Shown here piece after piece: positions 17,591 to 23,676 of a DNA stretch of 38,618 bases; position 1 is the stretch's first letter, and each line of letters begins with the position of its first letter. Position numbers and translations under genes: made by a program. Source of the DNA: Ionaspis alba (taxonomy: Eukaryota); the NCBI GenBank assembly GCA_964255285.1, contig CAXUUL010000067.1:1-38618 (forward strand). The letters are read 5' to 3'. A model generated the notes under the pieces. That model saw nothing but the letters and a program-made list of their open reading frames with translations, did not search any database and was not told the DNA's origin.

Positions 17591-20500
17591 ATGAGTTCTT
17601 CAGACGATGATGTTCCTCTTGGGCGAGGCTCTAAAACCAATGGCACCCATACTATCAATGGTGGGTTAATGTTTGTCACTACTGTTGTGGTCACTGCCGC
17701 CTTTAAACTTTTTGCAGTCAAGCCTTGGTTCCGACCTTCCGCACCTCACCTTGACTTCCTTCTTCACTCAACGCTTGATCTTACCTATTCATTCTCTTTC
17801 GTCTCTCATTCTCTAGGGTGTCTTGTCGCTGATCTGGTCATACACCCATAGGACACAAATCAGCAGACAAAATCCCGAAATCGCTCGATAAAGCTATGGA
17901 TAGGTCAATCCCCACTAGTAATCATGTTGATCCGGGCATATCCATTCGTCATGGACCTGTGGAGAAAATGGACATCGACGATCCTGCTGGAGAGGATACA
18001 AGGACAAATGGAGTCACCTCCGGCAAGCGGAAATCTCGCCAGAGCATGACCAATGGCAAAAGCTACAAAGAAGCCAGCAGTGATAATGATGAGGACGACA
18101 AGCCCTTGGTAAATTGATAAGTTTTCGGAGAATCTAGGACTACGTTGCTGACTCTTTCACAGAGCAAGCGACGTCGCACGTCGACCAAGAAGACAAAATT
18201 GGGTCTGGACTCCGACTCTGACGATGCACCGTTGGTGTCGAAAAAGCCTAAAAGAGATGCTCCGACTTCAGCCGCGATAAAAAAACCACCGAAGGCTTCC
18301 GAGACGGCGATTGGCGAGTCCGAGGACTCCGACACACCCTTGGGAGTCAAGCTCACGAAGGAAAAGGAAAAGATTGAGAAGCGTGCCTCAAAGGAAGCCA
18401 AGATCATCCGTAATGAGGAGAAAAAAGCTGCCACGGTTCCGAGGAAGAAGGTCAAGAAGGAGGATAGCGAAGATGACGACCAACCCCTGGCAAGAAAGAA
18501 GAAGCAATCAAATGGCGTATCAGCTTCAACCAAAAAACTGGCAAATGGCGTCAAGAAAGAGAATTCTGACGATGATGACACTCCTCTAGCTCGCAAAGCG
18601 CCTTCGAAGAAGATCAAATCAGAATCGAAATCGGACCTATCGACTCCCGTGAAGAAAGGATCCAAGGGCAAATCCAGAAAGGAAGAGACTGAGCAAGACG
18701 AAGAAGCTGAGGCTGAGGAAGAACAATATCGATGGTGGGAGGATCCTACTAAAGGCGACGGGACCATCAAGTGGACCACTTTAGAGCATGCCGGAGTTGT
18801 CTTTCCACCGCCATATGAGCCTCTGCCAAAGAACGTTCGCATGCGATACGATGGTGTACCTATCACAATGGCTCCAGAAGCGGAAGAGGTAGCTGGCTTT
18901 TTCGGTGCTATGCTCAACTCTACACACAATGTCGAGAACCCCACGTTCCAGAAGAATTTCTTTGGAGATTTCACCAAGGTTTTGAAGGAGAGCGGAGGTG
19001 CCAAGGACAAGGAGGGAAACAAGGTCAACATCAAGGATTTTTCCAAATGTGACTTCAAGCCTATATTTGAGTACTACGATGCTCAGCGAGAGAAGAAGAA
19101 AGCCCTTCCTGCCGCAGAGAAGAAGAAGCTCAAGGCAGAGAAGGACGAAGCTGAGGCACCATACATGTATTGCATGTGGGATGGCCGCAAGCAAAAAGTT
19201 GGCAATTTTCGCGTTGAACCCCCTGGGCTCTTCCGCGGCAGAGGCGAGCATCCAAAGACTGGTCATCTCAAGAAGCGCGTGCAACCAGAGCAGATCATAA
19301 TCAATATCGGCAAAGACGCAACAGTTCCTGCACCTCCAGAAGGTCATCAATGGAAAGAGGTCAAGCATGACCAAGAAGGCACTTGGCTGGCGATGTGGCA
19401 GGAAAATATCAACGGTGCTTACAAGTATGTCATGTTGGCAGCCAACTCGGATGTCAAAGGCCAAAGTGATCACAAGAAATTCGAGAAGGCTCGAGAGCTG
19501 AAGGTATGGTATTAAATGAGGTTGCATCGAACATTATGACTGATATCCTTTCAGAAATACATTGATATTATTCGAGAGGACTACACCAAAGAGCTGAAGT
19601 CCGAAAGAATGGCAGATCGACAAAGAGCAACAGCCGTCTATTTGATTGACAAGTTCGCCCTTCGTGCCGGCAATGAAAAAGGTGATGAGGAAGCGGATAC
19701 CGTCGGCTGCTGTTCGCTCAAATTCGAACACGTCTCCTTGGTCCCGCCCAACACCGTCATTTTCGATTTCCTTGGAAAGGACAGCATCCAGTTCTACAAC
19801 GAAGTCGTAGTTGATACCCAGGTATTCAAGAACCTAAAGATTTTCAAGAAGGAGCCTAAGGGTGAAGGTGACGAGATTTTCGATCGACTGACTGTACGTA
19901 GTTGTATTTTGCTGCCTTGTTTCTGCTGTTACTAATAATCGTCTTTTAGACAACTGGGCTTAACAAACACTTATCTACCTACATGCAAGGTCTTACGGCA
20001 AAGGTTTTCCGAACATATAATGCTTCGTGGACAATGGCCAATCTGTTACGAGAAATGGACTTGGAGGGCAAAACCGTTCACGAGAAGGTCAAAGCCTACA
20101 ACGACGCCAATCGAACAGTTGCGATACTGTGTAACCACAAGCGTACCGTCACAGCAGCGCATGGAGCTCAGATGGAGAAGATGGGTGACCGTATCAAAGG
20201 CCTGAAATATCAGAAATGGCGTCTGAAGCAAATGATGATAGACATAGACCCCAAAATCAAAAAGAAAAGGGGTGCCGAGTTCTTCGAGCTCGATAAGGAG
20301 ATAGATTCGGACTGGATAAAGGAGCATCAGACCTTTCTCGTTGAAGCAGAACGACAGAAGATCGAGAGGAAATTCACAAAGGAGAATGAGAAGCTCAAGG
20401 CCGAGGGTGAACGCGAGATGAAGGCGAAAGAGCTGCAGGAACGTCTTCAGGTGGCGGATGATCTAGAGAAGAAGTTCAAGAAAGAGAACAAGACCAGAAA

Positions 20501-20827
20501 AGTCGAGGCGGAAGGCAAGGGACCATCAATCGAGAAGCTTGAGAATAATCTTGCCAAGATCGATCAACAAATCAAGCGGATGGGTATCCAGGCCGAGGAT
20601 AAGGAGAACAACAAGGAAGTGGCACTAGGGACCTCGAAGATTGTGAGTCTATCAATCCCTGCTCGTCACTGGTCCTTGCTAACTCAACTTAGAACTATAT
20701 CGACCCGCGTCTTACAGTCGTCTTCTCCAAGAAATTCGACGTCTCGATCGAGAAGTTCTTTTCCAAGACTCTCCGTGAGAAATTTGACTGGGCGATCAAA
20801 TCTGTTGACGAAGACTGGGAATTCTGA
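17591..20827 (+). CDS. TOP1: DNA topoisomerase I (type IB)
   Basis: Exons 17591-17660, 17852-18108, 18163-19503, 19555-19893, 19950-20642 and 20693-20827. Motifs [36 protein letters not shown] and catalytic SKI|NYIDPR. Confidence 0.98.
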
Positions 20828-21873
20828 TGAGCAGTTCTCTGTCCGATCCAGAAAACTTACTTGCATCGAAGGGAAATTTATTCATGATAGAAGCCGTGAT
20901 CTTGGCATGCCTTATGCATATGGAAATCATAGAAACGGATCATTCTTCAACATTAGCCTAGCATTACACCGAGGAGCAGGCTGCTGGGCATGGATAGTCT
21001 TCTCTGGGGGACGGCCAGCACGCATGCTTGCTGCAGACTTGTAGCTAATAGCAAAACACGATCTCATGCTTGAATGACCGACTGCCGCTCAATACCTGCT
21101 GGGTTCGCAGCTTTCGACCCTAGCCCTGCCTTCTACCCCGTACCTTAGCTGACTGAAAGAATTGAATACAAATTAATGTCCCTATTCTGCCGCTGCCGGT
21201 CGATGCGGCTGCGTGCGCCATGCGAGACAATCGGTCTCGCATACCGATAACAACCGTGTCCCTAACTGTTAGATATCTCCGAGCTCGCCTGCAGCATCCA
21301 CTAAATGAATCCCATTTGGCGCATCAGGACTGGGCGACTTCAAAATCCTAGCGCAATGAGGGACCGTCTTATACCTAGATCGCTCTACATGCTAGTTACA
21401 GGCTTAATGAGAGCTCGCAGCACAATTCGTCGTGTACTTTTAGCTCCGAACGGTCAAACCATTGCACGGCAGAGAGTTCGCAATTGTTATATTCTGGAGT
21501 AACTCTACGCCAGTCCCGCTTCTTGATTCCTCAGCCACAGTATCAAGACTAGCAGCGCCGATGTTTACGCTAAGAGCCGCGGGTAGATCCACTGGCGAAT
21601 GAGATATTAGAGGCTGCGGTTGATAATCTTCAAACACAGCCCGAAGGATTGAAGGATTAAGGGATCAGAGGGCTGGGGATTTGCTATGCTTCTCCTTTAT
21701 AGCCATGATGTTATTTTATGAAGACTACGTCCGACAAGAACCTGTCGACGACCGTCGACTTCTGCGATATGTGTGATTCTTTCCGCTGCATTGTTTTTTT
21801 AGATTGCCTCTGATGTGTCGTTTCGTCAACCTAATTCTAACAATAATATAACATCGATCTCCGCATTGCGGAA

Positions 21874-23676
21874 ATGTTCTCATTTCCTATACTCGTTCTG
21901 GTGCTGATTACGAAACTGATCTATGCACAAATTGTTCAGGGAAAGTCAGCAAGTCCGATCGTGATTAAGGTATACTTCGATGCTGTTTCCTGACTACTGT
22001 AAATTGCTCATTGGTTTGCAGGGAGCCAAATTCTTCTATCAGGATAGTGGGGATCAATTGTCAGTGCTCTGGTTTTTGTAAGGTCAGGCAAAATCACAAT
22101 ACTGACATCTGATTCTCCAGTTTTATCAAGGGCCTCATATACCAACGCAAGCCGCCCTGTCTCTGCTAAGTCTATTTTATACTAACTCTCCTGAAGAGAT
22201 CCCGTCCAAGCTAGAGATCGGGAATGTGGCTGGAAATCTAGCTGCGAGCAGCATCAACGACCTCTATGTCGATGCTCTCGCCGATGCCGCTTCTTGCACT
22301 CGTGACCTGCCCTATATGCAGAAGCTACAAACAAATGTCGTCCGTTTATACGGCATTGATCCATCGCTAAATCACACGGAATGTATGACTCTGCTTGCAA
22401 ATGCTGGCATCTACGTCCTAGTGGACCTCGTGGCGCCAGGATACACAATCAGCACAACGAACCCTGTATGGAACGACGTTTTGTACAATCGTTATGCTTC
22501 GGTTATTGATGCAATGCAAAATTACACTAACATGCTAGGCTTTATCGTTGGAGATGATGTCGCCAGTGGCGTGGGCAGTAAAGACTCCGGGCCGTATATC
22601 AAAGCTGCTGTACGTGATATGAAAGCCTACATCAGAGAAAAGAACTATCGATCAATCCCAGTGGGCTACGTCAATTCTGTACTACAAGGATCAAACGCGC
22701 AGGCCTCGGATGCTTCTATGAGTATATGGAACTACCTTAACTGCGGTGATCAAAACGATGCCATTGATTTCTGGGGCGCAAACATCGTGGCTTGGTGCAA
22801 AGACAGCACATTCACGGATTCTGGATACAATGATGTGACGACCAAGCTGAAGAACTATTCTATACCTACATTCCTAGCTGCGTATGGCTGTAGCATACCT
22901 CTACAACGCGACTTCTCGGAGATTCATTTGTTATACAGCTTTCTTATGACACCAACCTGGTCAGGTGGTATTATTTATGAATATTTTGGCCAACTGGAGC
23001 CTGGATATGGTAAGTATACGTTACCGACAATTCGTAGCTTTCTAGGAAACTGACCCATCCAGGGCTTGTCACGGTCAGCGGCGCCTACGTAGCGACAGTC
23101 AGCAATTTCGACCAGGTATCTAGCCAGATGGCTACGGTGTCCCCATCTAGTACGAACTCGGCAAGCTATAACCCCACGAATACGGCCACGGTATGCCCAG
23201 CAGGTGCGGCAACCAGTTTACCACCAAACCCAAGAGCGCAAATATCGATCAGTGGCACCTCAACAACGTCCGCCACAGCAACCAGCACTCCTCAGCCCAG
23301 CCCTGATAACGGACTCTCTGTAGGAGCGAAAGCTGGAGTAGCTATTGGCGCGGTTGCCCTTGCGGCAGCACTTCTTGCCTTCTTGGTTCTGATGCGCAGG
23401 CGATCTGTCAAGAAGAAGGCAGCTGTTGAGGAGAAGGATCGCAGTGACCAATGGACCAAGACCGAATTACCGGCCGAGGATGTCGATCCGGAGGCGAGAG
23501 GTTATGGACCTCTTATGGCGGACTCCACAGCACGGGAAGAGATGGAGGGTACGGGCGTGAGGAGAGAAGTCGCGGATGATGGTCAGATCTATGAGGCACC
23601 AGGGGATACCGGGCGGGTACCGGAGTTGGGGACTGGAAGGTGGAGCTTGGGGCGGAGGAGGGAGATGCAGGGATAA
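21874..23676 (+). CDS. GH72 (Gas/Gel/Phr beta-1,3-glucanosyltransferase-like) type I membrane protein, predicted catalytically dead, 528 aa
   Basis: Exons 21874-21969, 22022-22059, 22121-22146, 22197-23009 and 23063-23676 (third intron is GC-AG). Signal peptide, then PIVIKGAKFF..FFIKGLIYQ, DALAD..CTRD, AGIYVLVDL, YIKAAVRDMKAYI, IPVGY, YLNCG and WSGGIIYEYF. Followed by an S/T stalk, a TM helix and a cytoplasmic tail. Confidence 0.9.

Follow-up and report, generated by a model that had tools for sequence, protein, structure and literature searches.

The window analysed here is a 38,618-nucleotide stretch of DNA from Ionaspis alba (GenBank assembly GCA_964255285.1, contig CAXUUL010000067.1), and the gene in question lies on its forward strand at 21874-23676. 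As judged from its sequence and those of its relatives, the gene product is a conserved pseudo-transglycosylase of family GH72 on a type I membrane anchor: the catalytic residues have been lost, and the protein has been kept across species. An earlier note on this DNA had proposed that an enzyme fold was repurposed here as a single-pass receptor that binds glucan and signals inward. The GH72 transglycosylases, core enzymes of wall building and antifungal targets, are known as glycosylphosphatidylinositol (GPI)-anchored or soluble proteins. A dead, transmembrane-anchored GH72 protein is apparently undescribed. Our full-text literature search returned no description of a transmembrane, catalytically dead GH72, and the GH72 tree in Supplementary Fig. 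53 of PMC9098629 may show the clade.

Results

A GH72 fold with a replaced active site

The fourth and longest coding segment of the gene (exon 4, 22197-23009) matches Pfam PF03198 (Glyco_hydro_72) with E-values of 1.5e-83 to 2.3e-83 (281 bits against a cut-off of 25.9) and encodes the GH72 (beta/alpha)8 core, residues 54-325. In a phmmer search of PDB sequences, Gel4 (8pe2) was matched at E 4e-70 and Gas2 (2w62 and others) at E 4e-60 to 9e-60, and the alignments to Gel4 (8pe1/8pe2) and Gas2 contain no gaps near the catalytic motifs. The GH72 fold that the earlier note had described as kept is thus confirmed by both the family profile and the individual alignments.

In the active-site account of PMC5753161, E176 of Gas2p is the acid/base and E275 the nucleophile, and a tyrosine triad together with an Asn surrounds the catalytic Glu pair. 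The acid/base pair N175/E176 of Gas2 corresponds to D173/D174 in the window (22553-22558), the Gel4 alignment agreeing, and the codons GGA GAT GAT at 22550-22558 encode G172-D173-D174. The nucleophile E275 (FFSEFGC) corresponds in both alignments to A282 in FLAAYGC, encoded by GCG at 22880-22882. According to the Gas2 alignment and the family columns, the middle tyrosine of the triad, Y244 (NMYEWC), corresponds to V251 in NIVAWC, encoded by GTG at 22787-22789. The triad is therefore incomplete, with Y105 and Y314 retained (Gas2 Y107 and Y307) and the middle Tyr replaced by Val; N249 (Gas2 N242) is also retained. Every codon that the earlier note had named in the three motifs was correct, and alignment to Gas2, which it had suggested as a check, fixes the register with no Glu at either site. 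All 99 active GH72 rows in our comparison have N, E, Y and E at the positions of Gas2 N175, E176, Y244 and E275. Since these four residues are invariant in the active sequences, the changes in the window are not ordinary family variation.

The predicted structure of a relative is consistent with the alignments. An AlphaFold2 run on the ortholog P0001, which is 65% identical to exon 4 of the window, was based on a 28-row alignment and gave a predicted local distance difference test score (pLDDT) of ~85-98 over the barrel and linker, <50 in the stalk and 31-38 over the whole tail, with a helix at 426-459 that equals the transmembrane segment. Foldseek against the PDB placed Gel4 (8pe2/8pe1) and Gas2 first (E 1e-33 to 3e-38), and the next matches were unrelated clan GH-A barrels at E 1e-9 or weaker. 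Superposition of the model on Gel4/Gas2 gave root-mean-square deviations of 2.1-3.7 A over ~370 aligned columns; those for 8pe1/8pe2 were 2.1-2.4 A, with a TM-score on target of 0.70. The predicted (beta/alpha)8 barrel is superposable on those of Gel4 and Gas2.

A conserved family of relatives

A core search limited to proteins of 448-2000 amino acids listed 120 matches. Among these, the top 17 together with P0019, P0020 and P0022 share 49-66% identity with the window and have no Pfam domain but PF03198, whereas the other listed matches are ordinary Gel4/Gas1-type enzymes with PF03198 and PF07983 at 45-55% identity. The 20 relatives from this search, P0123 and P0137 from the tail search described below, and the window itself make up a clade set of 23 rows. 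All 22 relatives share a Ser/Thr-rich stalk, a transmembrane segment preceded by G-A-K-A-G-I-G, a basic stretch and a tail with the clade consensus QWTKTELAADDVDREARGYGPHMADS..RAEVEG...E.P.DRPIFE.PG.....E[LM], and PF03198 was found in all 16 clade members scanned. None of the 23 rows has the acid/base Glu or the middle Tyr of the triad, and the nucleophile Glu is present in one (P0015 from Candelaria pacifica, with G-E-D and FLAEYGC). Six cysteines (87, 116, 236, 254, 285 and 369 in the window) are kept in 20-23 of the 23 rows; six such cysteines, including one in the linker, form the three GH72 disulfides in the description given in PMC5753161.

A gene that has lost its catalytic residues and has one intron with a non-canonical donor could be without function, as a paralog in decay or an artefact of annotation. 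The frame is, however, open over 528 codons, and 22 relatives in two fungal classes keep the architecture, the six cysteines and the tail motif; in addition, replacements at the former active-site positions are themselves conserved, and the gene tree mirrors organism taxonomy (see below). The same architecture in 22 relatives together with the conserved tail motif therefore speaks against a decaying paralog, an alternative that the earlier note had raised itself, and we consider it most improbable. The orthologs with the same dead site and transmembrane segment that the earlier proposal implied do exist, in Candelariomycetes and at least three orders of Lecanoromycetes, and the family is very likely under purifying selection, as far as the sequences allow this to be judged.

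Two cases deserve a separate mention. Sticta canariensis has three dead, transmembrane-anchored paralogs (P0020, P0022 and P0123), in all of which the acid/base pair is D-D and the Y244 position is occupied by Arg, and this is a local expansion. P0137 (528 amino acids) is very divergent, with an end branch of ~1.0, a G-N-Q acid/base site and FVASLPC as its nucleophile motif; its proximal tail motif is degenerate and its distal tail recognisable.

Remodelling of the catalytic pocket

Where the GH72 domain of active enzymes is at least 93% conserved, the dead clade keeps the residue at most positions, Y105, N249 and Y314 among them, and the retained groove positions are compatible with a sugar groove that may still function. 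Around the site the lining residues Y105, R103, N249 and Y314 are kept, and the centre of the pocket differs. Approximately 20 positions differ systematically between the dead clade and the active enzymes (51, 106, 137, 170, 171, 173, 174, 177, 215, 227, 251, 253, 255, 267, 280, 282, 290, 313, 320 and 339 in window numbering). Several of the replacements are themselves conserved, namely D215 to V/I/L, R227 to S, Y251 to V and R267 to A/V, which exchange charged or polar residues for small or hydrophobic ones; N173 (to D), N177 and W253 (to F, although the window keeps W253) are also changed in the clade. On the alignment, conserved new states at former active-site positions are remodelling under selection and not decay.

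Such remodelling could in principle have produced an enzyme of altered mechanism, in which carboxylates at 173/174 and some other residue act on a new substrate. D173 is present in 21 of the 23 rows, a second Asp occurs at 174 in the window and in the Sticta paralogs, and the early-branching Candelaria protein, with its nucleophile Glu and E-D at 173/174, may retain some activity. Yet the nucleophile position is A, G or S in 22 of the 23 rows, position 174 is N or S in 17 and Q in one, and the nucleophile-contacting Tyr is absent throughout. Moreover, both Glu are essential in the mutant data given in PMC5753161, where E-to-Q exchange at either one abolishes the activity of Phr1p and leaves folding unaffected. 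We regard continued enzymatic function as highly unlikely, and the window protein as very probably dead as a GH72 transglycosylase on the evidence of these positions.

Membrane anchor, stalk and tail

Hydropathy analysis revealed an N-terminal signal-like segment (residues 2-21) and a single internal transmembrane segment (residues 415-435, 23332-23394, peak 2.79), with a conserved GAKAG just before it. All features of this region lie on the forward strand. The transmembrane helix is preceded by a Ser/Thr/Pro-rich stalk (residues 383-410, 23236-23319), which is poorly conserved and is ~28 amino acids long in the window, within a range of ~28-50, and it is followed by a basic juxtamembrane stretch, RRRSVKKK.. 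(residues 436-454, 23395-23451), of which the composition is kept but not the sequence. A conserved cytoplasmic motif (residues 455-492, WTKTELPAEDVDPEARGYGPLMADS..REEMEG, 23452-23565) comes next, in which an 11-row alignment shows no variation at W, E, L, G and M, and then a variable acidic distal tail with E-hydrophobic-(P/G) repeats (..IYEAPGD..PELG..EMQG) that ends at the stop codon (23566-23676). Mean pairwise identity among the 23 rows is 0.64 in the barrel core, 0.53 in the linker, 0.26 in the stalk, 0.45 in the transmembrane segment, 0.24 in the basic stretch, 0.58 in the tail motif and 0.28 in the distal tail. The tail after the transmembrane segment counts 93 amino acids (RRRSVKKK and then 85 residues), and the figure of 94 in the earlier note has to be corrected.

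The last 30 amino acids are hydrophilic (mean Kyte-Doolittle -1.1), and by hydropathy there is no GPI-type C-terminus, the sole late hydrophobic segment being the internal one. Pfam detected no X8/CBM43 domain (PF07983) in the window pieces or in any of the 16 clade members scanned. These findings, together with composition and the sequences of the relatives, bear out the layout that had been read from the window at the outset: a Ser/Thr stalk, a transmembrane helix, RRRSVKKK and a tail with repeated E-hydrophobic-x-G/A motifs, with neither GPI terminus nor X8 box. Because of the hydropathy, the positive-inside rule, the six conserved ectodomain cysteines and three N-glycosylation sequons in the ectodomain, the protein is in all probability a type I membrane protein with a cytoplasmic C-terminus.

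A profile built from 11 tails was used in a HMMER search of 1.84 billion cluster representatives and retrieved 30 proteins at E <= 0.001; the 19 of these 30 that were examined were all family members or last-exon fragments. Many of those examined start at or near the LPPNP linker motif. The last-exon open reading frame of the window (23128-23676, 182 amino acids) has itself been deposited publicly as a stand-alone protein, P0122, and bacterial-style gene calling on lichen metagenomes hides the dead, transmembrane-anchored family as short 'hypothetical' proteins. Weak matches to TM_ErbB1 and SKG6-type families fell below the Pfam cut-offs and covered the transmembrane segment only. Look-alikes in the ESM Atlas all scored <0.9, and one cluster with Mid2 in 25% of its members (score 0.83) is a lead only.

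If the model of P0001 is a guide, the tail motif would be a disordered linear motif, which is the usual form of a partner docking site. This could serve a passive tether, scaffold or regulator as well as a receptor. Such a protein would bind nascent glucan or an active Gel paralog by the membrane and relay no signal. Its task would be to keep glucan chains in place for active transglycosylases, to fasten the membrane to the wall, or to lower or raise the activity of functional GH72 enzymes, and its tail would be there only for sorting, endocytosis or docking to the machinery of glucan synthesis. The short stalk (~28 amino acids) keeps the domain near the membrane, where glucan emerges, Gel4-type enzymes are the closest relatives, and pseudoenzymes often regulate active paralogs; the conserved tail, for its part, might just as well serve in sorting or docking. 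With 38 residues at 58% identity, on the other hand, the motif exceeds what most sorting signals need. We consider a purely passive role unlikely, though it comes closest to the receptor-like coupling that we favor in the Discussion.

Phylogeny and order of loss

In a FastTree phylogeny of 122 rows, from which proteins of >=700 amino acids were left out, the 23 dead rows fall on one side of a branch with a Shimodaira-Hasegawa (SH)-like support of 100. An IQ-TREE quick search under a mixture model, with 19 dead and 16 active rows chosen and the root placed on two yeast Gas1-like rows, likewise gave the dead clade an SH approximate likelihood-ratio test (SH-aLRT) support of 100, and its stem has 1.0 changes/site compared with 0.02-0.15 for the neighbouring internal branches. 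The dead clade is nested among Pezizomycotina GH72+ enzymes, and the window gene lies inside the lichen-fungus clade. As the nearest kin by sequence are GH72+ enzymes, the loss of X8 looks secondary. Candelaria is sister to all other members (support 91); there is no firm branching order between the window, the Sticta paralogs and the Teloschistales/Caliciales crown. In NCBI taxonomy, Candelaria belongs to Candelariomycetes and Sticta, Physcia and Villophora to three orders of Lecanoromycetes. The gene tree thus mirrors organism taxonomy and therefore fits vertical descent over a long time.

According to these trees, the dead, transmembrane-anchored GH72 proteins have one origin. Common to all members are the anchor, the tail and the loss of the N-E pair, Y251, D215 and R267. 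The distribution of the remaining changes suggests that the nucleophile was lost after the Candelaria split and that W253 to F and D174 to N came later (the window keeps both W253 and D174), an order that depends on the rooting and on P0015, for which FastTree gave a long-branch warning. Since Candelaria has kept the nucleophile, it may have been a still active enzyme that acquired the anchor.

Distribution in lichen fungi

Ten named GH72-bearing members come from eight species, namely Villophora microphyllina, Teloschistes flavicans, T. peruensis, T. chrysophthalmus, Fulgogasparrea decipioides, Physcia stellaris, Candelaria pacifica and Sticta canariensis, all of them in lichen-forming genera; the other members are ENA or Logan proteins. 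Named members were thus found only in lichen-forming fungi, on the basis of few named records. In JGI metagenome contigs the best 80 GH72 loci were all of the N-E active type (80/80) and <=52% identical to the window, and none was of the dead type. One locus (L055) with an apparent nucleophile Ala was discarded, the pattern match lying in non-coding sequence. A 2022 survey (PMC9098629) remarks on the large number of lichen-fungal GH72 sequences for which no relative has been characterised; in its supplements, the tree mentioned above aside, GH72 figures only within family lists and counts.

Two proteins have the stalk, transmembrane segment and tail motif without GH72: P0143 from Mycoblastus sanguinarius (Lecanorales) and P0148 from a Chrysothrix metagenome-assembled genome (Arthoniomycetes), in which the tail motif is followed by an unrelated 300-amino-acid region. 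Truncation or fusion of the gene models could account for them, as could a real second architecture. If the match in Arthoniomycetes is real, the family is wider than Lecanoromycetes and Candelariomycetes.

This distribution bears on a further possibility, that of a neofunctionalised, lichen-linked receptor with another ligand. The ligand could be a photobiont or thallus-matrix glycan (e.g. a lichenan-type mixed-linkage glucan) or a non-glycan, and the protein would report partner contact or the state of the thallus matrix. The lichen-forming genera of all ten named members, the tail-only matches from Mycoblastus and Chrysothrix, and the absence of the dead type among the best 80 JGI loci would fit this, as would the long stem branch and the conserved new active-site residues. 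In addition, GH72 enzymes of N. crassa are reported as active on lichenin (PMC8777122 and PMC11758075). Named records are few, however, and many members are metagenome proteins only, and we judge this explanation to be quite unlikely at present.

Gene structure and genomic context

Straight translation of 21874-23676 meets many stop codons, and the locus is read as a spliced five-exon fungal gene. The spliced model has 1587 nucleotides and reads without interruption through 528 codons to its stop. The 'intact ORF' of the earlier note consequently stands as far as the open frame after splicing is concerned, but the locus is not one continuous open reading frame, and a GC-AG intron is needed. 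We built the exon model by reading the DNA against the relatives' proteins, and placed the introns by ortholog alignment.

Exon 1 (21874-21969) contains the start codon, the signal-like segment and the start of GH72 (..PIVIK), and is followed by intron 1 (21970-22021, 52 nucleotides, GTATAC..CAG); the resulting junction, PIVIK|GAKFFY, resembles IEIKGSKFFY of the orthologs. Exon 2 (22022-22059), based on the DNA reading and the ortholog alignment, reads GAKFFYQDSGDQF.., and intron 2 (22060-22120, 61 nucleotides, GTCAGT..CAG) has a CTGAC branch-like site. Exon 3 (22121-22146) ends in ..FFIKGLIYQ, the first barrel strand with the conserved YQ. Intron 3 (22147-22196, 50 nucleotides, donor GCAAGC) is predicted as a non-canonical GC-AG intron with a perfect TACTAAC branch site 10 nucleotides upstream of the AG; the other three introns are GT-AG. 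Exon 4 is separated by intron 4 (23010-23062, 53 nucleotides, GTAAGT..CAG, CTGAC branch-like site) from exon 5, and the junction EPGYG|LVTVSG agrees with the orthologs. The first part of exon 5 (23063-23235) encodes the end of GH72 and the linker, with the sixth conserved cysteine (C369) and LPPNP; the stalk, helix and tail follow. All of these features are on the forward strand.

For intron 3 we enumerated all pairs of a GT or GC donor and an AG acceptor that leave the frame open (n=12). Among these 12, only the GC-AG pair 22146|22197 yields ..LIYQ-Q-IPSKLEIGNVAGNLA.., like the relatives' ..YQQVPSDDEQGSVATNLA.., and it alone recovers the ortholog segment YQQ[VI]PS...G[SN]V..NLA. The sole open GT-AG alternative (intron 22159-22241, junction 22158|22242) removes the clade-conserved IPS..G.V..NLA segment and was set aside as the less probable model. 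Intron 3 as GC-AG is thus the best reading of the alignment. Contigs of two public runs cover 21800-23482 (depth 112) and 22002-22460 with 0 differences to the window, so the GC donor is present in the DNA and is not an assembly slip; the two contig sets bear on the DNA only, and one of them possibly comes from the window's own source and would then not be independent. The segment just downstream (residues 54-72, 22197-22254) contains an insert after the first strand that is shared by the dead clade (..PS....G[SN]V..NLA..), and Gel4-type active enzymes have a variable Ser/Thr/Gly stretch at this position. A 186-nucleotide contig of the second run matches only 39 nucleotides of the window (22595-22633, the KAAVRDMK region), with 5 differences there and dissimilar flanks, and probably represents another GH72 gene, either a paralog or one from another fungus in the sample.

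The neighbours of the gene in the window are housekeeping genes. Topoisomerase I lies directly upstream (18121-21044), then come ATP synthase gamma and aldehyde dehydrogenase, and calnexin/calreticulin, DUF2417, an NAD-epimerase and G6PD are further neighbours. The G6PD shows 90% identity to that of Pseudogymnoascus and 87-88% to those of several lichen fungi, a degree of conservation that allows a placement in Pezizomycotina and nothing finer. No wall-related or secondary-metabolite cluster surrounds the gene within the window.

Discussion

Our leading reading is that the protein couples the cell wall to the cell interior in the manner of a receptor, although our confidence in it falls just short of even. 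According to this reading, a Gel4/Gas1-type barrel would fold in the secretory pathway and be unable to run the double-displacement reaction. A short, O-glycosylatable stalk and one transmembrane helix would keep it on the outside of the plasma membrane, where the ectodomain may bind wall glucan, beta-1,3-glucan or a related lichen glucan, without cutting it. The conserved, disordered and acidic tail motif would dock a cytosolic partner, and occupancy of the ectodomain, or pull on it, would thereby be coupled to the cell interior. The parts of this proposal are not equally probable. That the protein still binds a beta-glucan seems to us, from the residues kept in the groove, an evenly balanced question, and that it transmits a signal, as opposed to merely anchoring, is possible but doubtful.

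The proposal should be interpreted with caution, since several observations weigh against it. The replacements go beyond the catalytic Glu pair and affect another four to five active-site residues that never vary in active enzymes; the -1/+1 region would therefore have been rebuilt, and beta-1,3-glucan may not be the ligand. The tail motif belongs to no Pfam family above cut-offs and contains no known signalling motif that we recognised, and as the matches of the tail profile that were examined all belong to its own family, it provides no link to a known pathway. No WSC (PF01822) or Mid2 (PF04478) domain was matched at E <= 1 in any of the 16 members scanned, and by analogy the short stalk would be unlike that of a Wsc-type sensor. 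The predicted topology and signal peptide depend on hydropathy and the positive-inside rule, and the splice model, with its need for a GC donor, is likewise a prediction from sequence. Finally, the present data do not separate the tether from the receptor.

Comparison with known systems places the protein between several of them. Gel4, Gas1, Gas2 and Phr1-2 are true homologs, with 45-52% core identity and the same (beta/alpha)8 fold in the ortholog model, and share with the window protein the three disulfides, two of the three triad tyrosines, many groove residues, the signal peptide and N-glycosylation sequons. Unlike them, the window protein lacks the catalytic Glu pair, the preceding Asn, the middle Tyr and X8/CBM43, and the GPI signal of the Gel4/Gas1-type enzymes is replaced by a transmembrane helix and a cytoplasmic tail. 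The lack of CBM43 and the low-complexity Ser/Thr tract after the linker recall the GH72- proteins (Gas4/Gas5/Phr3/Pga4-like), which PMC5753161 defines by these two features. By sequence, however, the window protein is closest to GH72+, and the members treated in the GH72- portion of PMC5753161 are described as active, none with a transmembrane segment and tail or with both Glu replaced; Phr3p is said there to have no recognisable GPI site and is termed genetically inactive.

In layout, the closest analogs are fungal wall sensors, as had been suggested from the window at the outset. Wsc1-3, Mid2 and Mtl1 have a carbohydrate-facing head, a Ser/Thr stalk, one transmembrane segment, a basic juxtamembrane stretch and a tail of ~90 amino acids. 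The window protein matches them in its predicted type I orientation, stalk, single transmembrane segment, basic stretch and tail, and to this extent the comparison stands; the WSC and Mid2 domains themselves are missing. Its head is instead a 350-amino-acid dead enzyme, its stalk is short where Wsc-type mechanosensors have a far longer one, and its tail has no similarity outside the family among the examined matches of the tail-profile search. Insect beta-GRP/GNBP (GH16) and the GH18 chi-lectins are glycoside hydrolase folds without catalytic carboxylates that have been kept for glycan recognition. They belong to other GH families, are soluble, occur in animals or plants and have no anchor or tail, and are thus analogous rather than homologous.

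A more far-reaching version of the receptor-like coupling would make it an invention of the lichen lineage. A Gel4-type enzyme would first have gained the transmembrane anchor and cytoplasmic motif, then lost catalysis, and its pocket would have been rebuilt, the result being a receptor for a symbiosis-relevant glycan that helps to control the switch to the lichenised state. The Candelaria form, with its nucleophile, would represent the anchor-first stage. We put this forward as speculation, and a rather improbable one.

To our knowledge, almost no lichen-specific surface receptors have been identified. As the named members are all lichen-forming, the family is a candidate for sensing of the wall, the matrix or the partner by the mycobiont. 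The family would also offer a natural example of stepwise conversion of an enzyme to a receptor, in which the anchor came first, the acid/base was lost and the nucleophile was lost later. A dead GH72 protein with a transmembrane segment and a selected cytoplasmic motif would be a new fungal surface receptor, or a new wall-membrane coupler, derived from an enzyme fold.

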